Assembly (NCBI GenBank): GCA_044222185.1
Contig: JBGANV010000001.1
Span: 1,789,337 to 1,853,336 of the forward strand
Origin: Planctomycetota bacterium
GTDB taxonomy: Bacteria > Planctomycetota > GCA-002687715 > CAIWVZ01
Direction of reading: 5' to 3'
Length of the DNA: 64,000 bases
Under the pieces are notes generated by a model. It saw nothing but the letters and a program-made list of their open reading frames with translations, was not told the DNA's origin and ran no database searches. This document shows, in pieces, positions 24,847 to 64,000 of this stretch; positions within the stretch are counted from its first letter, which is position 1; every line of letters starts with the position of its first letter. A program made the position numbers and the translations under genes.

Positions 24847-26388
24847 TCAGCCCTGCGTGTCGACCTTGAACTGGCCGACGAGCTGGTCGAGCTCCCGCGA
24901 CTGCGTGGAGAGCGCCGATGCCGTGCCGGAGATCTCCTCCGCCTGGCTCGCGTTCGCCTGGGTGATCTTGTCGATGTCGGAAACGGCATGGTTGATCTGG
25001 CCGACGCCCGTCGCCTGCTCCTTCGACGCTGCGGCGATCTCGGCGACGATGGCCGTGACGCGTTTGACGGCGTCCACGATCTCCGTGAGGGTCGACCCCG
25101 AGCGGTTGACCAATTCCGTGCCGGCTCCGATCTTGGAGACCGAATCCTGGATGAGTCCCTTGATCTCGCGCGCCGCGCTCGCGCTTCGCTGCGCAAGACT
25201 GCGAACCTCGGCCGCCACAACGGCGAAACCCCGACCCTGCTCGCCGGCGCGCGCAGCTTCCACCGCCGCGTTCAACGCCAGGAGGTTCGTCTGGAACGCG
25301 ATCTCGTCGATCGTCGTGATGATGTCGGCGATCTTCCGGGAGGACTGATTGATCTCGGACATGGCCGAGACCGCGCTGCCGACGACCGAGCCACCGGCTT
25401 CGGCGACCGTGCGGGCTCCGTCGGCGAGCTGGTTCGCCTGGCTGGCGCTGTCGGCATTCTTGCGAACGGTCTGCGTGAGCCGCTCGAGGTTCGCCGCGGT
25501 TTCCTCCAGTCCGGACGCCTGACGCTGGGCGCCGTCCGAGATCTGCGACGTTGCTGCCGAGAGTTCCGTTGCCGCGACGCCGACGCTTCTCGACGCGTTC
25601 CGCAGGTCGAGCATGATCTTGTGGAGGTGCGTCATGAAGACGTCGAACCACTTGCTCAACTCGCCGATCTCGTCGGTGCGTTGAAGCGCCAGGCGCTTCG
25701 TCAGATCCCCTTCGCCCTCGGCGATGTCTCGAAGCTGCTCGACGACGTGACTCAACGGACGGGTGATGCTGCGCGCCACGAAGTACGCGAGACCTGCGAG
25801 GATGGCAGCGGTTGCCGTCACGATGGTGAGCAGCAGGACGTTCGCATGATTCTGGACTTCGGCGGCGTGCTCGGACGCCTTCGTCGCGGACTTCTCGATC
25901 AGATCGCTGAGAGAACTCATCCGTCCCTCGAGGACTCCGAACGTCTCGAGGAACTTGGGAAGCTCCGCCTTGGCCGCATTGGCGTCGGAGACGGCGAGCT
26001 TGACGGTCTTCTCCGCGTGTGCGATGTAGGATTCGAGTTCGGGCTTGACCCCGTTCAGAGCCGAGTGGAGCTCGGCATCCAGCGGGAGTTTGGCGTTCTC
26101 CTCCAGCTCATCACGGAAGTGCCCGGCGTGCTCCGCGAGGTCCTTTGCCACGGCCTCGTGCTCCTCGGGAGACTGGGCGAGGATCGCGGCCAGCACGTCC
26201 GCGCGGAGCGCGTCGTGCATCATGTCGCTCTCCATGTGGTGCCGGATGGCCGATGTCGTCGTGTTCACGGCTTCCGTGCCATCGGCGACGGACTCGAGCC
26301 CCCACCACGAGGTGCCGCCCAGGACGAGCGCGAGCACCAGGCCGGACATCCCGATTCCGAATAGCTTCGTTCGAATCTTGAGCTGCAT
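24847..26388 (-). CDS. Methyl-accepting chemotaxis protein (2 TM, HAMP, MCP signalling domain)
   Basis: Conserved MCP signalling-domain core ([41 protein letters not shown]). Confidence 0.85.
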
Positions 26389-26506
26389 ATCACCCTCGTA
26401 TCGACCTGCGATCCCAAACCATGAGTCTCATCCTTTGCGAGCCGCCCGTCGCGTGGGGCGGCTCGGCGGTTCGACGGACTCGATGACCCTGCCCGCTCGA
26501 CTCGAC

Positions 26507-28366
26507 TCAGAAGTCCTCGAACGTCAGATCCGACGGGTTGCTCGTCGAATCGCCCTGCATGTCGCGTCCGAGAGCCGCGAGTCCGGATTCGACCTGCGCT
26601 GCGTTGTCCTGGAACCTCGGCTTCGACGCCGGCACCGAAGACGCGGCGGCACGAGGTGCCTGGCTCGGAGCCTTCGCCGCGGCGTCTCGAGCCTTGGGCG
26701 ACGGATTCACCGGGCGCGCCCTCGGCGCCTCGTGAGCCGGCGGCGGCGTTGGGGCGGCGCCGTCCAGGTCCACTCGGAACCGGGCGACGATCCCGCGGAG
26801 TTGCTCCGATTGCTGGGCGAGCGACTCTGCCGTCCCGGACATCTCCTCCGTCTGCGACGCGTTCGACTGCGTGACGCTGTCCATCTGCGAGACCGCGCGG
26901 TTCACCTGCTCGACGCCCGTCGCCTGCTCGCGCGATGCGGAGGCGATCTCCGAGATGATGTCCGTGACCCGCTTGACGGCCGTCACGATCTCGTTCAGCG
27001 TCGCGCCCGACTTGTTGACGAGCTCGGATCCGCCCTCGACCTTCTGGACGGAATCCTGGATGAGGCCTTTGATCTCCTTGGCCGCGGTCGCGCTGCGCTG
27101 CGCCAGGTTGCGGACCTCGGAAGCGACGACGGCGAACCCACGTCCCTGTTCACCGGCGCGCGCCGCCTCGACGGCGGCATTCAGCGCCAGCAGGTTCGTC
27201 TGGAACGCGATCTCGTCGATCGTCGTGATGATCTCTGCGATCTTCTTCGATGCCGTGTTGATCTCGCCCATGGCCGTGACGGCCTCGTTGACGACGCGCC
27301 CGCCGTTCTCGGCGACGTCGCGTGCTGCGCCGGCGAGCTGGCTCGCTTGCTGCGCGTTGTCGGCGTTTGCCTTCACGGTCGAGGTCATCTCTTCGAGCGT
27401 GGCGGCCGTCTGTTCCAGGCTCGACGCCTGTTCCTGGGCGCCAGCCGAGATCTGCGTGCTGGCCGCCGAGAGTTCACGCGACGCGGTCGCCACACCCTCT
27501 GCAGTGGACCGCACCTGGCAAAGCGTCGTGCGCATGGACGAAATGGCGTCGTTCAGTGCGCTCGACATGCGACCGACCTCGTCCGTCGTCTTGATCTGAA
27601 GCGACGACGTGAAGTCGCCCTGTGCGACGTGCGACAGGACCTCCGCGGCGCGACCCAGAGGGCGGGCGATCTGCGTCGAGATCAGCGTCCCGAGAAGCAA
27701 CCCGCCGATGATCATCAAGACGGTCGCGATGATGCTCGTCTGGATGGCGCCGCGTGCCTCGGCGCGGCCGTCCTCGTTCATGTCGCTCGCGACCGCACCG
27801 ACGGTCGTGACCAGTTCCTCGAGACTCGAGGCGGCGACCTCCAGGGCCGCCCGCGTCGAGACGATGCCCTTGTGAACGCCGGCCTCGACGGCTTGATGCT
27901 CCTCGGGAGTCGTGGCCGTCCAACGCTGCGCGGTCTTCGCCGCGACGTTCGCCCCCTGCTCGAAGTAGCTGGCGACCGCCTTGCGAACGGACTCCAGGTC
28001 GTGTGTCTCGCTGCGGCCGGAACGCGAGACACGCAGAACGGTCGCGGCGTAGGCATCGAGCGACGCGGTCACCGCCTTGCGGATCTGCTCCTGGGCCGCG
28101 ACCGCCTTGTCGCAGCCGGCGCGGTCCGTGGACTCGGCCACCACCTCCGTGGCGTCCACGAAATGCGCGAGGTTCGCGGCCGCCTTCGCCAGGTCGTTGC
28201 TCGCGACGGTGTAGTCTTCGTACACGACCCGGAGTGACTCCTGGACGTGAAGAATGTCGATGCACGTGACCGCACCGCCCACCGCGGCGATCACGCAGAC
28301 CGACGCGAACGACAGCATCAACTTCGCTTTGGTGTTGAGATTCCAGAACCAGCTCATTGCATCCAA
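26507..28366 (-). CDS. Methyl-accepting chemotaxis protein (larger periplasmic domain, HAMP, MCP signalling domain)
   Basis: Same conserved signalling core ([41 protein letters not shown]). N-terminal TM helix. Confidence 0.85.
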
Positions 28367-36211: not shown

Positions 36212-37032
36212 GACGGGTCCCGCGCCCGTCCGAAGGCCCCGCGCTCCGTTCGTCTGAGGAACTCGACCAGGTCGCCGACCTCCGCCGTCACGTTCGGCTG
36301 CAAAGCCACCTCGTCCAGGATCTGGGTGCGAGGACGCTTGCTCCGGAACACCGTGCGGTGGGCCTCGCGCAGCGCCGCGATCTGGTCTTCCGAATAGCCG
36401 TTGCGCTGAAGCCCGACGACGTTGACCTTCCACACCTTCGCCGGGTTGCCCTCGACGATCATGTAGGGCGGTACGTCCTGCACGATTCGCGTGAGTCCGC
36501 CGACGTACGCGAGGCGGCCGATCGTCGTGAATTGCTGGACGCAGGCGGCGCCGTTAAGGATCGCGCCGTCGTCGATCATCACGTGACCAGCGATCAGGAC
36601 GTTGTTCGCCATCACGACCTGGTCGCCGACGACGCAATCGTGCGCTACGTGGCAGCACGCCATGAGGAGGTTCCGGCTCCCGATGCGGGTGTAGCCGTCG
36701 CCTTTCATGGTGCCGCGGTTCAGAGTCACGAACTCGCGGATCTGGTTGTTGTCGCCGAGCGTGAGCCAGGTGATCTCGCCCTTGTACAGTCGATCCTGGG
36801 GATCGCCGCCGACGGCCGCGTGGTGGTGGATGACGTTGTCGGAACCCAAACGCGTGAACGGGCCGATGCTGCAGTTCGAACCGATGCGCGTGCGGTCTCC
36901 GATCTCGCACGCTTCGTTCACGACCGTGTACGGACCGATCGTCACTCCGGCGCCGATCACGGCAGTCGGGTGGATGACGGCGGTCGGATGGATCTCCACG
37001 GTTGCGCTCACGAGTGGAATCGCCTCACGCAT
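36208..37032 (-). CDS. lpxA: Acyl-ACP--UDP-N-acetylglucosamine O-acyltransferase LpxA
   Basis: IHPTAVI hexapeptide repeats and the C-terminal helical domain typical of LpxA. The start could be 7 codons downstream. Confidence 0.9.
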   Translation of the reverse strand: MREAIPLVSATVEIHPTAVIHPTAVIGAGVTIGPYTVVNEACEIGDRTRIGSNCSIGPFTRLGSDNVIHHHAAVGGDPQDRLYKGEITWLTLGDNNQIREFVTLNRGTMKGDGYTRIGSRNLLMACCHVAHDCVVGDQVVMANNVLIAGHVMIDDGAILNGAACVQQFTTIGRLAYVGGLTRIVQDVPPYMIVEGNPAKVWKVNVVGLQRNGYSEDQIAALREAHRTVFRSKRPRTQILDEVALQPNVTAEVGDLVEFLRRTERGAFGRARDPS

Positions 37033-38323
37033 CCATCAGCATGAACTTCATGATCGCCTCGCACGTCAGCTCGTCGTTGACGCTCGCGCGGCCGTAGACC
37101 TTCGCGGACTTCGCACGGATGGAGAGCGTTTCGCACTCCAGACGAAGCTGGTCGCCCGGCACCACGGGCCGGCGGAACTTGATGCGATCGATGGAAAGCA
37201 GCACGGCGACCTTGGCCGTGTTCAACAGTCTGCGCAGAAGCAGGACGCCTGAGAGCTGAGCCAAGGCCTCCACCTGCACGACTCCCGGAAGGATCGGCTG
37301 TCCCGGCCAGTGCCCTTCGAAGAACGGCTCGTTGATGGAGACGTTCTTCACTCCGACGGCGCGCTGGTATCCCTCGAGCGCCAGCACCCGGTCCACGAAG
37401 AGGAACGGGAACCGGTGCGGGATGATCTTCATGATCTCCTTGATGTCGAGGGCGGTCTCCGACGCCACCATCCCCTGCACCTCGAGCATCTTCAGCCGCG
37501 CAGCCAGGCGGGTGACGAGCTCGAGGTTCATCCGATGGCCGGTCTTCGTGGCGACGATGTGCGCCTCGAGGTCCGCATCGAGCATGGTCAGGTCACCGAG
37601 CAGGTCCAGCACCTTGTGCCGCGCGGGCTCGTTGTCGAGCCGGAAGGTGTTGTCGACGACGCCGGACTCGCCGATCACGAGCGTGTTCTTCGTGTTGGCT
37701 CCCAGGCCGAGCCCCATCTCCTGGAGCTTGCGCGCCTCGACCTCGAGGCAGAACGTGCGCGCCGGTGCGATCTGCGTGAGGAACTTCTCCTCGTTGACGT
37801 CGACGGTGACGAACTGTGGTTTGAGCCCCGGCGCGTTGCCGTAGTCGAGCGTGTAGGAGATGCGCAACGCGGCGGGGTGAGGGAAGGCCGTCAGCGTCGC
37901 GTCACCCTCGGCGACCGCGACCGGCTGATCGAGCTGGAAGACCTTGCGCGGCGCCTTCTGCTCCTGGCGCCCGGCGTCGCGGAGCCCCTCGGCGTACGGG
38001 AGTGCCGAGCCGTCCAGCCCCGGAAGCTCGGATCCGTCGATCTCCACCTGCACGTTGTCGATCCCGAGTACGTAGAGGCCGGCGGCGAGGTGCTCGACCG
38101 TCCCGATCTCGAGTTCGCCGTTGCTGATCGCCGACTGCCGATCGCGCTTGACCGCCAGGTCGCGCCGGAGCGGGATCCGCGGTTTGCCGGGCACGTCCGT
38201 GCGGATGAAGACGACGCCCGTGTCGGGCTCACCCGGCTTCACGACGACCGTGACCTCGCGCCCCGTGTGCAGCCCGATACCGCGGAAAGTGACGGAGTTG
38301 CGGACGGTGCGTTGATTTCTCAC
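37025..38323 (-). CDS. lpxC: Bifunctional LpxC (UDP-3-O-acyl-GlcNAc deacetylase) / FabZ (3-hydroxyacyl-ACP dehydratase) fusion
   Basis: N-terminal ~290 aa match LpxC ([21 protein letters not shown]..., [10 protein letters not shown]). C-terminal ~140 aa match FabZ ([13 protein letters not shown]...[15 protein letters not shown]). Confidence 0.85.
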
Positions 38324-47963: not shown

Positions 47964-48035
47964 TTACCCTGCTAGGACTCGAACCTAGAATTGCAGGGCC
48001 AGAACCTGCCGTGTTACCAATTACACCACAGGGTA
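47964..48035 (-). tRNA. tRNA-Gln (anticodon CUG)
   Basis: Hand-folded cloverleaf: U1:A72 acceptor pair typical of tRNA-Gln, D arm GTGTAATTGGTAACAC, anticodon loop TTCTGGC, T arm CTAGGTTCGAGTCCTAG. CCA is not encoded. Confidence 0.75.
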
Positions 48036-48136
48036 GTGGTGGCGCGGGAGACGAGCCCCCGCCCGCGATCGAGCGAGACTGTATCGGTGGCCGAACGTGA
48101 TTCAACGGGACGCCATCGGGAGCGACCGCGCCGAAG

Positions 48137-48208
48137 TTACCCCGCCAGGACTCGAACCTGGAATAACAGGACCAAAACCTGCTGTGTTACCAATTACACC
48201 ACGGGGTA
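48137..48208 (-). tRNA. tRNA-Gln (anticodon UUG)
   Basis: Near-identical to the neighbouring tRNA-Gln, but with anticodon loop TTTTGGT and a compensating acceptor-stem change (CCCCG/CGGGG). Confidence 0.75.
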
Positions 48209-58003: not shown

Positions 58004-61000
58004 TCACTTCGACGGCGAGGATTCGGGCAGCGACGTCGGGCGAGATTCCGGCGGCGCCGGCGGCGGGCCACCGAGCCCTCGGATGAGGCGCTCGTGATTC
58101 GTCTGCGCCCAATGCTCGAACGCATCGCGACGGTCGTTCGCGTCTTCGATCGGCGACGACATCGTCAACGGCGGGAGGCGCTCGTCGGTCAGCGCGCGCA
58201 GCCGGGCATCGACGGCCTCACGCAGAGCCGGGTTGCGCTCCGTGAGCACCTTGAGCAGCACGGCAAAGCCCTTCGCGTCGAGCTTCCCACCACCGAGCCA
58301 TGACTCGAGGAAGACCGTGTCGAGCTTCAGCTCCCGCAGCGCGAGGCGGAACCACTCGCTCCGGTCGAGCTTGCCGAAATCATCGGAGAACTTCTGGTAC
58401 TCGGCACGACGAAGCGCTGGTGCCTTGGCCGTCGAGACGAAGTACGTGAGCTGGTTGAACGCGCGCTCGGCGAACGGGTCCCCTTCGGGGTTCGCCAGCG
58501 CGCGCAAGAGGTGAGGCATCGCCTCCGGCGCACCGAGTCGCGCCAGCGTCAGGACGGCGACGCGGCGCAGGTCTGCGTCATCCGAGTTGAGCGACGGGAG
58601 AAGGTCGGGAACCGCGCCCTCCCCCTTCGACGACGCCAGAGCCTCGATCGCCTGCAACCGCACGTCACGTGACTTGCTTCGGGCGTACGCGTCGGCGATC
58701 TCGGCCGTCGCCTCCGAACCGCCGATTCGCGCGAGCGTCGACAGGGCTTCGCAGCAAACCTGCACGTCCGTGTGCTCCCGGACGATTCCACCGAGGGCGA
58801 CGATGGCGCGCCGCCCACGCGAGGCCGAAAGTCCGCGGAGAACGGCGTAACGATCGTGCACGTCTCCGTCCCGGAAGATCTCCATGAGACGGGCGACGCC
58901 CTGCTCGCGCATGACGGTGCCGATCGCCTCGATGGCCCGCACGCGAAGCGGCTTGTCTGGCGAGTTGATCACCGCCTCGAGCATGGCGGGGACGCGATCG
59001 TCGTCGAACGACGCCAGGGTCCGCACGCAGGCATCGCGCACGCGTGGCTCGTAGTCTTTCAGCCCGTCGATGAGGATCGAAACGACGTCGCGGTCGCCGC
59101 GGAAACGTGCGAGTGCCTCCGCGGCCGCGGCGCGCATGTTCGCCTGCTCCGAACGAAGCGCGGCCATCACGTTGGTCCTGGGCTGTTTCGCGAGGAACTG
59201 GCGCAAGACTTCCGCCGTACGCGCTCCGGGCGAGCGGCCGAGGAACGCGAGCACTTCCTCTCGCACCGGCACCGTATCGACGACCGCAAGCACGTCGATG
59301 AGCCGCGCTGCCGCCTCGGACAGCGTCTTCTCCTCGCGCAGCAACGCGATCAGCCGATCCGCGTTCCGCGCGCGAAACTCGGGTGCGGACACGGACAGCA
59401 GGTCCACGGCGGCGAGCCGGGCGTCCTCGCCGAACAACGGGTAGTTGTCGAGCGCGAGTTGCAGCAGCTTGTCCCGCTGCGCCTCGACCGGTGCGGAATG
59501 GAAGAACTCGGCGTTGTCCGCGAAGTAGCGCGCCCTCCCCTGCGGATCCGTGGGCGCGAACCGCTGCCACGCCAGCGATCGCTTCAGATCGAACAGCGTC
59601 TTCTCGAGCGCGTCGATCTCCGGCGGGAACGGCGCGTAATGACGCCGTGTGAACTCGTCCGGACCCCGGCGCAGAGTGATCTCGATCACGGGATCGGTGC
59701 GCGACGGGTCTTTCGTGTCGCCGCGCACGGCGAAGAACCGCGCGGAGTCCAGAGCCTTCTTGATGGCGTCCCGATCCGGGGCGCCGAGGACGAGGGGCTG
59801 GCCCGGCAGGTTCCGGTCCAGGACCGTGACGTCGCCGGTGAGCAACGCGGCCCGCTCCCCGCCTTCCATCCCGCTCACGCGGATCGACACGGTGCACCTG
59901 GCGAGGTCGTCGACCGTCACCATGCGCAGCTGGCGCCGCGCGACGAATCCGTTCTCGGCACGCTTCCAGTAGGCGCGCCACCGAGATGACGTGGGCCCGT
60001 AGCTCTCGCCGCTGATCAGCTCCATCTTCCGGTAGCCCAGTTCCTCCACCGCGACGTAGTCGTTGAAGAAGCTTCCGCCAGCCACCGTGTCGATGAGGAT
60101 CGGCATCAGGTACTTGTCCGCGATCGCGCGGAGCGTGGCGTCGTCCGTCCGAAACGACACGTTCGCGAGCGCGATGGCCGCGGCACCCCGGTAGAACGGG
60201 TCGTCGCCCTGCAGCATGCGCAGCGCGCGGTCGCGCACCGACTCGTTGTCGGGAATCAACACGACGCCCTTCACGTCCTCCGCCTCCGTCAGCGCGAGCA
60301 ACGCGTACGCCGCCTGCCGCTGCGTGCCCGTGCGGGCGAGGGCCAGGAGTTTCTTGAACTCCGTCTCCGTGCCGTGCCGCGCGACGTGCCGCGCGGCGAC
60401 CGCAGCCACGCCCACCTCCGGGTCGGCGAGTGCATCGATGAACTCGTCGCGCGACGCGGAGTCCGGCACCCGCGTCATGAGGTCCATGGCGACGGCGCGC
60501 GTCTGCGCCGTGCGTGATTTGAACAGCGTGATGAGGTCCGGCATGTACTGCGGATCGAGGACGGCCGGCAGCGCGTTCTGCGCCGCGAGCCGCACACGGC
60601 CGACCTGGTGCGTGAGGAACGGGAGGAGCTGACGGGGCCCCGCGATCGGATCGATGCGAATCAGCGCGGCCATCAAGTCGGCCAGCGCAGCGCCGTTCGT
60701 CGGCTCGCGGATCGCGGCGATCAACGAGGGCGTCGCGGCCTTGGCGCCCATCTCACCGAGCGCGAACGCGCTGGCGGCTTGGACGCGCCAGTCGTTGTTC
60801 CCGAGCCCGGCGATGAGCCGAGGCTCGACGCTCGCGCCCAGACCCGAGAGGGCGATGGCCGCGTCCTTCCCCGGTTTCGCCGGCCAGCGCGACAGCCGTC
60901 CGAAGAGCGTCTCCACGGGATCGCCGCTCGTCGGTGCCGGCGCGTCCTGGGGCGCGGTGGCGGGAGCGTCCGCCGGGCGAGAGTCGGCGGGCTTCGCCAC

Positions 61001-61141
61001 GTCGTCCCCGGGCGAGAAGACGGGCCTCGCGCCGGGCTTCCCGGCGCGAGGCGGGTTGACGTGCGTCGGAGGGTTGTTCTGCGCCGTGAGGACGACCGCG
61101 GCGAGACTCCAAGCGAGGAGCGTGACGACAGACTTGAGCAT
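58004..61141 (-). CDS. Large secreted HEAT/PBS-lyase-like repeat protein (1045 aa)
   Basis: Signal peptide (MLKSVVTLLAWSLAAVVLTAQ). Many ~30-aa repeats of the pattern ..VR..A..ALG.IG...A...L...L.D.... typical of HEAT-like repeats. Confidence 0.65.
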   Translation of the reverse strand: MLKSVVTLLAWSLAAVVLTAQNNPPTHVNPPRAGKPGARPVFSPGDDVAKPADSRPADAPATAPQDAPAPTSGDPVETLFGRLSRWPAKPGKDAAIALSGLGASVEPRLIAGLGNNDWRVQAASAFALGEMGAKAATPSLIAAIREPTNGAALADLMAALIRIDPIAGPRQLLPFLTHQVGRVRLAAQNALPAVLDPQYMPDLITLFKSRTAQTRAVAMDLMTRVPDSASRDEFIDALADPEVGVAAVAARHVARHGTETEFKKLLALARTGTQRQAAYALLALTEAEDVKGVVLIPDNESVRDRALRMLQGDDPFYRGAAAIALANVSFRTDDATLRAIADKYLMPILIDTVAGGSFFNDYVAVEELGYRKMELISGESYGPTSSRWRAYWKRAENGFVARRQLRMVTVDDLARCTVSIRVSGMEGGERAALLTGDVTVLDRNLPGQPLVLGAPDRDAIKKALDSARFFAVRGDTKDPSRTDPVIEITLRRGPDEFTRRHYAPFPPEIDALEKTLFDLKRSLAWQRFAPTDPQGRARYFADNAEFFHSAPVEAQRDKLLQLALDNYPLFGEDARLAAVDLLSVSAPEFRARNADRLIALLREEKTLSEAAARLIDVLAVVDTVPVREEVLAFLGRSPGARTAEVLRQFLAKQPRTNVMAALRSEQANMRAAAAEALARFRGDRDVVSILIDGLKDYEPRVRDACVRTLASFDDDRVPAMLEAVINSPDKPLRVRAIEAIGTVMREQGVARLMEIFRDGDVHDRYAVLRGLSASRGRRAIVALGGIVREHTDVQVCCEALSTLARIGGSEATAEIADAYARSKSRDVRLQAIEALASSKGEGAVPDLLPSLNSDDADLRRVAVLTLARLGAPEAMPHLLRALANPEGDPFAERAFNQLTYFVSTAKAPALRRAEYQKFSDDFGKLDRSEWFRLALRELKLDTVFLESWLGGGKLDAKGFAVLLKVLTERNPALREAVDARLRALTDERLPPLTMSSPIEDANDRRDAFEHWAQTNHERLIRGLGGPPPAPPESRPTSLPESSPSK

Positions 61142-61490
61142 GCTCGGACTCCGCCGATACGAACCGAGATTCAGGGCACGTCGGGCAGGGACAGGAAAGG
61201 CCCCGGTTCTACGGCCTCGGAGGGGGGTCGGTCAACGGGTCGTTGCGTCGGCGGGCACGCGGTGGCGCCCGTCCGCGAATCCGGCCTGGCGACCCATGGC
61301 GCTCAACCCCATGGGATACTGCACGCCTCGCCCGCGCGTGCGGGTTCGCATGGTTCGGGCACCGTGCCAGGCCGATGGAGGAACACGACATGCGGAGCAT
61401 GCGGCTGATCTCGGTCGTGCTGGTCGTCGCACTCGTGGCGCGTTGGATCCGTTTGCTCGACTTTGGATCCTCCCCGAACCCGTCGTCGGC

Positions 61491-61931
61491 GGAGCGCCTG
61501 GCCTCCCGAGTCCGACGAGGAGGCCTGGCTGGATGGCGAGACCTCCGGGCTCGCCAGAGCGTTGAGGTGCCCTGATACTCAGACGGCTGTCGCGCGAGCG
61601 GCCCCGCGACTCGAGATCCGTTGCGAGTTCCCGGCGGGGCGGAGCCCCCGCCGTCCAGCCGCGTAGAACGCGGCGCTCCTGTCGCCGCGATTCCGACGCC
61701 GCATGGCACGCGATTCCGCAATCCGAGATTCGTTGCGAGTCCGCGGAGCGCCTGGCTTCCCGAGTTCGACGAGGAGGCCTGGCAGGGTGGCGAGAACGCC
61801 GGGGTCGCCGGAGTGTGGAGGGGCGTTGAGATTCAGACGGCTGCGGCGCGCGCCGTTCAGCGACGTCAGATCCGGTGCGAGTTCCCGGCGGGGCGGAGCC
61901 CCCACCGTCCAGCCGCGTGAAACGCGGCGCT
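61491..61931. repeat. Two direct copies of a ~186-bp GC-rich element (61491-61676 and 61745-61931). Each ends in two adjacent strong hairpins.
   Basis: Copies share the termini GGAGCGCCTGGC(C/T)TCCCGAG...GAGTTCCCGGCGGGGCGGAGCCCCC(G/A)CCGTCCAGCCGCGT(A/G)(G/A)AACGCGGCGCT. Hairpins are CCGGCGGGGC-gga-GCCCCCGCCG and GCCGCGT-aga-ACGCGGC. The internal stem GGCGAG...CTCGCC is preserved although its loop sequence differs. Confidence 0.5.
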
Positions 61932-61955
61932 TCGGCCATCGGCGCGAAGCGGACG

Positions 61956-63962
61956 TCAGACGCGCGTCACGGCATCCGCCGGCAACTCGGGGACCGAAAG
62001 CCGCAGCGAACATCGCACCAACGCGGCGTCTGGCGCACCGCCCACGAGCGTGAGGCTCGCACGGACCCAGGCCGTTGGAATTGATGTTGCATAGATCGAC
62101 ACGGTCCGTGCGACGTCCGTTCGTTCGACTGCGAGGGTTTGCCAAGTGACCCGATCATCGGACCCATCGATCGACACGTACAGCAGTGGCGTTCCATCGA
62201 GGCGCACGACATCCGCCATCACGGAGACGGCAGCGGGTGCTCGCGCGACCTCCGTGACGTGCAGCACCAAATCGTCGCGTACTGCGTGGCCGACGAGTTG
62301 CAGCATGACGTAGCCCGGAACGACGGCCGCCGGCCGCCCGGGCAGAATCTCGAACACTCGGAGTGAGCGCGCAGGAAGTTCGACATCGAGCCGGATCGCA
62401 CCCGTATTCGTCACGTCGTGAACGTGAACGCGCCTCCCGCCCTCGTTCTCGACGAGAACGCCAAGCTCTGGCATGGGGTATCGGCCCGGCAGCATCCGAA
62501 CGGCTGCCACGCGCGGTTCCGCTGCGGCATTCGTGAGCAGCACTCCAACGTCCGCACCAGACTGCCAGACGGACCCCTGCACCATGAGGTCGCCATCCCA
62601 CCCCGTTCGCTCGAGTGCGTCCTCGAGCATCCCGGGAAGCGGTCGCAACTTCTCCCCGAGGAGCTGAAACCTCCGCGTGACTGGATTCGACCGCACGAGC
62701 GTCCGGATGAAGTCCCAGCTCTCGAAGTGTGGCGTCGACTCGAAGGGCCGCGACAGCAGGTACGCATCGTCGATAGGGTTGATCGGGGCGAGGAGCCGCC
62801 CTCCGTGATAGTGCGTGGCGATCTCCCAGGGCTCCGGCGTGAACGGGATCATCTCCTTGTTCATGAGTCGCTCGGCGACCATGCCGTAGTCGTGGTAGAC
62901 GGTCGAGTACAGAGGTGCTGGGACGAAACTGTCGTAGACCTCGCCCTTCGCCTGGAAGCCGCTCGCGATCTCGATCAGGTCGATGACGCTCTCGTCGACG
63001 AACTCGGACGCGAACGCGAAATCGGGATCCTCGAATCGAACCCCGTTCCACCTCTTGAACTCGGCCTTGAACATCTCGCCCAGAAGCCGCTTTGATTGCT
63101 GCCAATCCGGGCCGCCCGTGCGCGGCAGCTCGGGATTGCCATCGATCTGCGGGGGAAGGCCGATCCAGTGGTCGGTGTAGAGCGCCCGGACGCCGCTCTC
63201 ATCGACGAGCCTCCGCCACGTGGTGATGGCGAGTTCACGGCTCGAGGCGCGCGTCGGGTCGATCGTGACGATCACTTCGCCGTTGAACGGATTGATATCG
63301 AGCACCGGATGGCCGAAGGCGTCCTGCGCGGCTCGGTTTGCTCCGTCAAACGTGCGATACGCCTTTGACGCCGTCGACCACAGGCTGCGCCAGGTGTAGG
63401 GCGTCACCGTGATCCCCTCGTCGGCCAGCCGTTGCACCGCCGCGGGGAACGTCGGCTTCATGGTGTAGTCGGGAAAACTCGTCGCGAACGACTCATAGTT
63501 CCAGGCGCCCCACACCGACGCGATCTTCGCTACCCCCAGGAACTCCTTCACCCGCAGAAGATCCTCGACGAACGGTTCGAAACTCTCGTTCATTTCGTCG
63601 AACGTCCGGCCCCGCAGAGTCGTGAAGTCGGCGTCACGAATGAGGCTGGAGAAGTCGGGCGCCGTCGCGATCGGGCCGCGCTTTCCCCACGGCTGATTCA
63701 ACGCCCAGGTTCTGTAGCGCTTCGCTGCGTCATACCAGCTCCCGCGCATGAGCGAGATGCGGAAGTCGTATGGCATCTCGAAGCTCCAGCCGGACTCCGG
63801 ATCGCCGCCCGCACGCCCGTTGTTGATCGGGTAGTTCGTGAGGGCAAACAGCGTGTTCGTCTTCCCCGCGTACCACTCCATCTCCTTCCGTTGTCCGAGG
63901 CTGTCGGTCGTACGCAGGTATGCCATGGTTCCGCCCGGCGAGTAGTAGGCGAACCACTGCAT
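61956..63962 (-). CDS. Hypothetical protein (668 aa), possibly carbohydrate-active. Its start is at or near the right window edge.
   Basis: Long ORF with Trp/Tyr-rich, non-repetitive sequence. No signal peptide at the annotated Met. No motifs I can assign confidently. Confidence 0.45.
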   Translation of the reverse strand: MQWFAYYSPGGTMAYLRTTDSLGQRKEMEWYAGKTNTLFALTNYPINNGRAGGDPESGWSFEMPYDFRISLMRGSWYDAAKRYRTWALNQPWGKRGPIATAPDFSSLIRDADFTTLRGRTFDEMNESFEPFVEDLLRVKEFLGVAKIASVWGAWNYESFATSFPDYTMKPTFPAAVQRLADEGITVTPYTWRSLWSTASKAYRTFDGANRAAQDAFGHPVLDINPFNGEVIVTIDPTRASSRELAITTWRRLVDESGVRALYTDHWIGLPPQIDGNPELPRTGGPDWQQSKRLLGEMFKAEFKRWNGVRFEDPDFAFASEFVDESVIDLIEIASGFQAKGEVYDSFVPAPLYSTVYHDYGMVAERLMNKEMIPFTPEPWEIATHYHGGRLLAPINPIDDAYLLSRPFESTPHFESWDFIRTLVRSNPVTRRFQLLGEKLRPLPGMLEDALERTGWDGDLMVQGSVWQSGADVGVLLTNAAAEPRVAAVRMLPGRYPMPELGVLVENEGGRRVHVHDVTNTGAIRLDVELPARSLRVFEILPGRPAAVVPGYVMLQLVGHAVRDDLVLHVTEVARAPAAVSVMADVVRLDGTPLLYVSIDGSDDRVTWQTLAVERTDVARTVSIYATSIPTAWVRASLTLVGGAPDAALVRCSLRLSVPELPADAVTRV

Positions 63963-64000
63963 GGCGACTGCGGTCGACGGGTGCGGAAAGTTGTGGCCTC

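Follow-up and report, generated by a model that had tools for sequence, protein, structure and literature searches.

A low-copy intergenic repeat beside a DUF6259 operon on a planctomycete chromosome: copies, hairpins and probable origin

Bacterial MITEs and long palindromic repeats (Correia/NEMIS, ERIC, RUP and BOX) are non-coding intergenic elements of 100–250 nt, and the terminal inverted repeats of MITEs usually reach at least 10–15 bp. REP, BIME and REPIN sequences form the other class of intergenic repeats with which the present locus was compared. REP families are known as GTAG- and CGTC-tagged (Di Nocera et al. 2013, PMC3733652), and the roles proposed for REPs are termination and mRNA stabilization. 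In the CGTC families, the first two stem positions are A/T, the loops have 4–5 nt and a CCA tail is present (PMC3733652).

The locus described here lies in a 64-kb window (the whole stretch of DNA that was analysed) of a GC-rich chromosome (67%), ordinary chromosomal DNA of a diderm with an LpxC-FabZ fusion, LpxD, LpxA, BamA, DnaB, TatC, Kup and two tRNA-Gln genes. Homologues of the neighbouring genes bear names that point to Planctomycetota/Phycisphaerae, and the chromosome is probably that of a Phycisphaerae-like planctomycete. Two copies of a unit slightly longer than 200 nt are found side by side within the 814-nt intergenic gap between the genes of a HEAT-repeat protein and a DUF6259 protein, and at least part of a third copy is found beyond the window end. 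The pair is the sole non-coding repeat of the window. The element is non-coding and probably not a dedicated structured RNA gene, and it is best filed as a minor new example of a familiar class of intergenic repeats, outside any named family. With moderate confidence, it is regarded here as a lineage-specific, low-copy, non-coding repeat made by local copying.

The repeat unit and its three copies

A repeat search of the 64-kb window detected a direct repeat formed by positions 61485–61677 and 61739–61931, with 84% identity and a spacing of 254 nt. Extension by blastn brought the match to 61485–61698 versus 61739–61955 (82% identity, E 5e-58), and the two copies also found each other in an nhmmer self-match (E about 1e-66). 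TRF did not report this array of 1.9 copies, which reflects a limitation of the tool and does not count against the repeat. The features of the region are as follows.

58004–61141, minus strand: HEAT-repeat protein of 1045 aa (Pfam HEAT_2, E 1e-40), with the exact protein on Logan contig L001
61485–61698: repeat copy 1, ~214 nt, defined by its blastn and nhmmer match to copy 2 and by alignments, nearest in sequence to the out-of-window copy 3
61699–61738: spacer between the copies, 40 nt, overlapping an extra copy of a 31-nt sub-module (61716–61746)
61739–61955: repeat copy 2, ~217 nt, 82–84% identical to copy 1, with two stems weakened
61956–64000, minus strand, running off the window end: DUF6259 protein of 861 aa at full length (Pfam DUF6259; P0001 at 100% identity)

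A preliminary description of this DNA had reported two copies with a 254-bp period between two minus-strand genes, on which the repeat search, blastn and nhmmer agree. Its unit of about 186 bp was too short, the unit being ~214 nt by blastn extension. The conserved ends and diverged middle that it described are confirmed by the identity profile of copies 1 and 2, with 90–95% in the 5′ block (61485–61524), 95–100% in the 3′ block (61625–61664) and 70–80% in the middle. Within the units, a 31-nt sub-module, CCGCaATCcGAGATtCGTTGCGAGT, is found three times by repeat search (61604–61634, 61716–61746 and 61858–61888), with recurrences at offsets of 112 and 142 nt; the 254-nt unit therefore carries an older internal duplication.

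A distance of 349 nt separates the left end of copy 1 from the start codon of the HEAT-repeat gene. On the other side, copy 2 ends directly at the stop codon (61956–61958) of the DUF6259 gene, which is not truncated, the C-terminus of its product being full length relative to the orthologue P0002. This gene is the last of a minus-strand operon of six genes (L003 1–6726, virtual coordinates 61956–68681), which also encodes four small proteins without Pfam match and a GT1 glycosyltransferase of 572 aa that carries a methyltransferase domain at its C-terminus. Literature searches for DUF6259 and for sequencing run SRR28480390 found no paper.

The third copy was recognized from Logan contigs (k=31) of run SRR28480390, made from the same sample and located through two window proteins. 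The contig carrying the HEAT gene (L001) stops at window position 61520, and the one carrying the DUF6259 operon (L003) stops at 61527 and reaches 4,681 nt past the window at its other end. L003 begins with 30 nt that match the reverse complement of 61491–61520 exactly and then continues with unrelated sequence. Because the longest exact match between copies 1 and 2 does not exceed 28 nt and no 31-mer of the repeat region recurs within the window, such breaks in k=31 contigs need a third locus. The identity of copies 1 and 3 is observed over at least 30 nt and extends, by assembly-graph logic, over the following stretch.

61491–61556: 66 nt inferred to be identical in copy 3, a shared unitig deduced from the k−1 overlaps of the Logan contigs

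Copy 3 starts at virtual window coordinate ~68652, i.e. 7161 nt to the right of copy 1. It is oriented like copy 1 and lies beyond the DUF6259 operon, ~460 nt upstream of the first operon gene. The left flanks of copies 1 and 3 are unrelated, and the start that the two copies share sets the left end of the element at GGAGCGCC (61491). The search for further copies that had been proposed in the preliminary description thus yielded at least part of one copy 7.16 kb away, but none elsewhere, either in the 64-kb window (blastn and a profile search at maximum sensitivity) or in the 4.7 kb beyond its end. Across the whole genome, the element may be much commoner. Copy 2 stands well apart from the other two copies, and copies 1 and 3 are much more alike. 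Since copy 1 equals copy 3 over their shared stretch and the adjacent copy 2 is 16–18% diverged, recent mobility or gene conversion is suggested over simple old duplications.

The nearest relative found has a DUF6259 protein with 63% identity, encoded on a 118-kb ENA contig (L004). The operon of this relative comprises the same small genes and the DUF6259 gene, the glycosyltransferase gene is missing and the neighbours differ on both sides. At the orthologous locus there is no element, no analogous repeat and no similar DNA. A GH95 gene neighbouring the operon on L004 has no listed orthologue in the source genome.

Broader searches gave equally little. A 22-mer scan of 185,579 species genomes returned one chance match, inside a Kiritimatiellia CDS, and nothing colinear. 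Among metagenome contigs (JGI), a 25-mer from the 5′ block had no match, and a 24-mer from the 3′ block had one, on an unrelated lower-GC contig (L005) without colinear similarity. Two pattern scans of viral contigs were negative, and blastn gave only 39-nt noise in Streptomyces plasmids and nothing in phages. A phage att site was rejected, with no integrase and no viral matches.

The lower-GC metagenome contig (Ga0079218_10006506) deserves a separate mention. At 2590–2705, it has an intergenic, REPIN-like arrangement consisting of an inverted pair of ~43-nt REP-like hairpin units with an AT-rich spacer. Hairpin H3 of the repeat (see below) and one of these units have 24 nt in common, an exact match that is taken as convergence of GC palindromes or as chance.

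Local copying and the mobile-element alternative

In the account favoured here, a hairpin-rich unit of ~210 nt would have been copied locally. An old tandem duplication with a 254-nt period would have produced copies 1 and 2, and later copying or gene conversion would tie copy 1 to copy 3 across the DUF6259 operon. The arrangement of copies 1 and 2 resembles a simple tandem or segmental duplication in its head-to-tail units, its fixed period, the inclusion of flanks and the decay of the older copy, and the internal 31-nt module suggests earlier rounds of local duplication. Copy 3 departs from this simple scheme, however, since a copy identical to copy 1 and 7 kb off needs an extra dispersed duplication or gene conversion.

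The main alternative is mobility. The three copies could be independent or semi-independent insertions of a MITE- or REP/REPIN-like element that is non-autonomous, is one member of a dispersed family and is moved by a transposase acting in trans. At least three copies with differing left flanks have a common left boundary exactly at GGAGCGCC (61491), and the identity of copies 1 and 3 beside an old copy 2 is a multi-generation pattern. The size of ~200 nt and the intergenic site at a gene 3′ end also fit MITE and REP habits (PMC3733652). Still, no further copy is found in 64 kb plus 4.7 kb, no transposase gene is present in the window or on L003, and neither the 185,579 species genomes nor the metagenome collections contain a real match. 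Moreover, copies 1 and 2 are alike beyond the putative ends (61485–61490 and 61681–61698), which points to tandem duplication of a larger block. Mobility of this kind is considered rather unlikely.

The comparison with known MITEs and long palindromic repeats (Correia/NEMIS, ERIC, RUP and BOX) leads in the same two directions. The likeness includes the size, the long imperfect hairpin of copy 1, and the existence of several copies of different ages in different flanks. An 8-nt inverted match, GGAGCGCC (61491–61498) with GGCGCTCC (61673–61680), is present and copy 1 folds end to end, but the match is just 8 nt long in copy 1 and degenerate in copy 2 (GGCGCTTC, 7/8), the right end having been set without the 3′ part of copy 3. 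Furthermore, a consistent target-site duplication is lacking, as the flanks are GTCGGC/GTCGCC for copy 1 (5/6, with an offset of 1 nt) and GTCCGC/ATCGGC for copy 2 (4/6). No sign of dispersal is seen within 69 kb, and the sequence that adjacent copies share past the putative ends favours block duplication.

For comparison with REP sequences, the four local hairpins of the unit have to be considered.

61500–61525: hairpin H1, GGCCTCC(12 nt)GGAGGCC; copy-2 equivalent at 61754–61779, where one C to T change gives a G-U pair (plus-strand reading)
61535–61555: hairpin H2, GGCGAG(9 nt)CTCGCC; copy-2 equivalent at 61789–61809, with 5/6 pairs kept
61632–61653: hairpin H3, CGGCGGGGC-GGA-GCCCC(C)GCCG, with a bulged C; copy-2 equivalent at 61886–61907, with a C-A mismatch
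61658–61674: hairpin H4, GCCGCGT-AGA-ACGCGGC, 7 bp; copy-2 equivalent at 61912–61928, with the loop GAA

These are clustered, intergenic, GC-rich stem-loops of 17–26 nt that closely follow a gene and are flanked by probably convergent units, as in REP, BIME and REPIN arrays. Their position is that expected of REPs, with copy 2 abutting the DUF6259 stop codon and a candidate plus-strand ORF ending inside copy 1. Both family tags can even be read: each copy has a CGTC directly after H3 (GCCGTCC), and the H4 loop of copy 1 includes a GTAG. However, the CGTC overlaps the 3′ end of H3, whose stem is all G/C and whose loop has 3 nt, and the GTAG occurs only in that one loop and is absent from copy 2. 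The element is also unlike REPs in consisting of ~214 nt with four different hairpins, compared with a palindrome of 20–40 nt, and, within the 69 kb covered, in copy number, with three copies within 7.2 kb and no further one in the remaining 61 kb of the window or the 4.7 kb beyond, compared with tens to hundreds. No RAYT gene is seen, and blastn and nhmmer found no separate recurrence of any of the hairpins elsewhere in the window. Thus, the REP/MITE-like repeat of the preliminary description stands as regards its non-coding, repeated nature, a partial third copy and the location at a gene 3′ end, but neither the REP tag and unit nor the target-site duplication of a MITE is found.

A more elaborate version combines an undescribed MITE/REP-like family of a poorly sampled, Phycisphaerae-like planctomycete lineage with a role for its direct copies. 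By bracketing the 7-kb DUF6259/glycosyltransferase operon, these would mark a recombination-mobilized cassette or act as boundary insulator or terminator modules. This combination is judged distinctly improbable. Whatever their origin, perfect direct repeats, at least 66 nt long as inferred, do bracket this glycan-related operon and could mediate its deletion, excision or amplification. Should many copies exist genome-wide, they would constitute a new repeat family, still of a familiar class, in a phylum whose intergenic repeats have hardly been catalogued. On present evidence, the element matters little.

If the locally copied unit has a function, it would be generic. In the manner of REP and BIME sequences, its GC-rich hairpins at 3′ ends may stop or stabilize the transcripts of the DUF6259 operon (minus strand) and the converging transcripts of the small ORF (plus strand). 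Such a role is suggested by position, as the last operon gene ends directly before copy 2 and probably convergent units enclose the repeats. As in intrinsic (Rho-independent) terminators, stable GC-rich stem-loops are found from ~30 nt past the stop codon; unlike in such terminators, none of the stems leads into a T/U run on either strand. The lack of T-runs counts against this part of the local-copying account and leaves a classical terminator role unsupported. The terminator/attenuator array envisaged in the preliminary description likewise finds no backing in its canonical form, as a consensus scan of 60900–62200 on both strands gave no stem-plus-T-run site; the hairpins may nevertheless act at 3′ ends without a U-tract.

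Coding potential of the repeat region

Three ORFs overlap the repeat.

61232–61939, minus strand: 235-aa ORF, annotated as protein P0004 in the source NCBI record, reading copies 2 and 1 in different frames
61390–61575, plus strand: candidate small ORF of 61 aa (MRSMRLISVVLVVALVARW...), with gene-like GC1/GC2/GC3 at 61300–61480, called as a gene by the Logan annotation of L001
61621–61920, plus strand: ORF of 99 aa, with no match among 1.84e9 representatives

Across 61420–61960, the GC content is about equal at the three codon phases; the flanking genes have GC3 values of 0.81–0.90. No Pfam match was found over the repeat region. As 254 nt is no whole number of codons, the frame is broken between copies, and a tandem protein repeat was rejected on the same ground. 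The 235-aa ORF has a flat GC3 plot and, among 5.8e9 proteins, a sole match, which is itself. Because it reads the copies in different frames and has no homologue anywhere, it is probably a spurious call, i.e. an annotation artefact. The annotation of the source record can be corrected accordingly, since the 235-aa protein over the repeat is almost certainly no gene.

The 61-aa ORF has more gene-like attributes. It has a hydrophobic N-terminus, making it a candidate membrane-anchored protein, and GGAGG is located 8 nt upstream of its ATG; it has no Pfam match. If it is real, the repeats probably sit between convergent transcription units. Its last 30 codons are supplied by copy 1. The first six substitutions between copies 1 and 2 (6/6 in the first 58 nt, 61488–61542 versus 61742–61796) all fall at third positions of its frame, with P about 0.004 uncorrected. 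Copies 1 and 2 do not differ in the peptide SAERLASRVRRGGLAGWR, or in its antisense reading, and both have a TGA at the same place. The strand is ambiguous because the same positions are also third positions of the antisense frame. Over the whole unit, the phase bias of substitutions is weak (18/10/10, one-sided P 0.05). The third-position bias hints at some constraint beyond a purely neutral non-coding model; it is taken as unexplained, and not as evidence of coding.

These observations bear on the idea that the unit is a remnant of duplicated coding sequence, in which the 3′ end of the 61390–61575 gene and its downstream region would have been duplicated, copies 2 and 3 being pseudo-copies of the tail. 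The contribution of copy 1 to the 61-aa ORF, the third-position substitutions, the shared peptide and TGA and the gene-like codon-position GC in the N-terminal half of the ORF would all be expected in such a case. Yet no ORF with a start codon enters this frame in copies 2 and 3, the latter having a stop 3 codons upstream. The shared part uses unusual codons (CGA four times, GGA twice; GC3 ~0.63 versus 0.85 genome-wide), ~120 nt of each unit lie past the stop codon, and no protein family matches. With the weak phase bias over the whole unit and third positions common to the antisense frame, this origin is regarded as quite improbable. The preliminary description had named remnants of duplicated coding sequence as an outcome that would overturn its proposal; most of the evidence is otherwise, except that the first 30 codon-equivalents match the 3′ end of a small ORF and differ mainly at third positions.

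The HEAT gene and the small ORF are divergent, and the promoter region between them contains a palindromic motif that forms a short direct repeat (61294–61316, CCCATGG cgctcaac CCCATGGG). The 5′ part of the HEAT-repeat gene contains a GC hairpin at 61024–61052, with a perfect stem of 13 bp and a loop of 3 nt (GCCTCGCGCCGGG ctt CCCGGCGCGAGGC).

Hairpin conservation and the RNA question

The preliminary description had emphasized conservation of pairing rather than of sequence. Its second, 7-bp stem (GCCGCGT/ACGCGGC) is indeed perfect in both copies, with two of the three loop bases differing. Its GC stem of 9–10 bp is present, but actually consists of 5 bp, a bulged C and 4 bp, and copy 2 has a C-A mismatch (G61650 to A). 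The internal stem GGCGAG...CTCGCC is retained with 6 bp in copy 1; in copy 2, it lacks the innermost pair and has 5 bp. Overall, the four local stems comprise 29 pairs on the two-copy alignment, of which 26 are invariant, one becomes a wobble and two are broken in copy 2. No pair shows changes on both sides, a count that has low power with two sequences. The arms are thus conserved as sequence, and the emphasis on pairing does not hold.

Substitutions are nevertheless unevenly distributed, affecting 3/58 stem positions versus 34/155 other positions (Fisher P 0.004), a comparison in which the stems were chosen inside conserved blocks. On both strands, copy 1 exceeds its dinucleotide shuffles in stability (z −3.15 and −3.24), and copy 2 shows no such excess (z −0.87 and −0.63). 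With its lower fold stability and two stem disruptions, copy 2 looks decayed, as expected of a redundant duplicate. RNAalifold on the two sequences finds changes on both sides in 3/69 pairs of the plus strand and 2/56 of the minus strand, which is uninformative.

A structured non-coding RNA or a cis-regulatory RNA (sRNA locus, leader or attenuator), whose function would depend on the conserved hairpins, draws on part of these data, namely the stability of copy 1 on both strands and the scarcity of substitutions in stems. Both single-side changes, in H1 and in the terminal match, yield G-U pairs on the plus-strand reading, and the both-sides changes of the 69-pair RNAalifold model include the outermost stem (GTCGG/CCGAC versus GTCCG/CGGAC). 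Against this, covariations obtained by RNAalifold from two sequences are within what optimization alone yields, compensatory changes are absent from the four local stems, in which copy 2 has two disruptions, and copy 2 is no more stable than its shuffles. The region has no promoter-like or terminator-like sites, and the orthologous locus of the nearest relative found shows no conservation. The Rfam scan that had been recommended matched only two tRNAs in the window with Rfam 15 at the gathering threshold, and a relaxed scan of 61100–62000 (E≤5) gave no family match, only mir-2861 at E 1.5. Without an Rfam family, compensatory changes, a copy 2 distinguishable from shuffles or a counterpart in the nearest relative found, the structured RNA proposed earlier loses its basis, and an RNA function of this kind is considered very improbable.

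A stretch of 17-nt complementarity (16/17) between 61579–61595 and the HEAT coding region at 60887–60903 could be invoked for an RNA that pairs with a neighbouring transcript, but this match has an E value of 0.16 window-wide (blastn). The inverted match links the middle of copy 1 with a site ~240 nt into the HEAT gene; copy 2 matches this site less well. An RNA reading through on the minus strand could pair at 60887–60903 with one G-U.

Other duplications and fusions are seen in the window. Two tandem tRNA-Gln genes (anticodons CTG and TTG; 47964–48208, minus strand) share 84% identity at a distance of 173 nt. Two paralogous genes for methyl-accepting chemotaxis proteins (4HB_MCP-HAMP-MCPsignal; 24847–28366, minus strand) lie next to each other, with ~71% DNA identity. 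Finally, a fused LpxC-FabZ gene (37025–38323, minus strand) belongs to an lpxD / lpxC-fabZ / lpxA cluster beside bamA, which is consistent with a diderm of PVC/FCB type.
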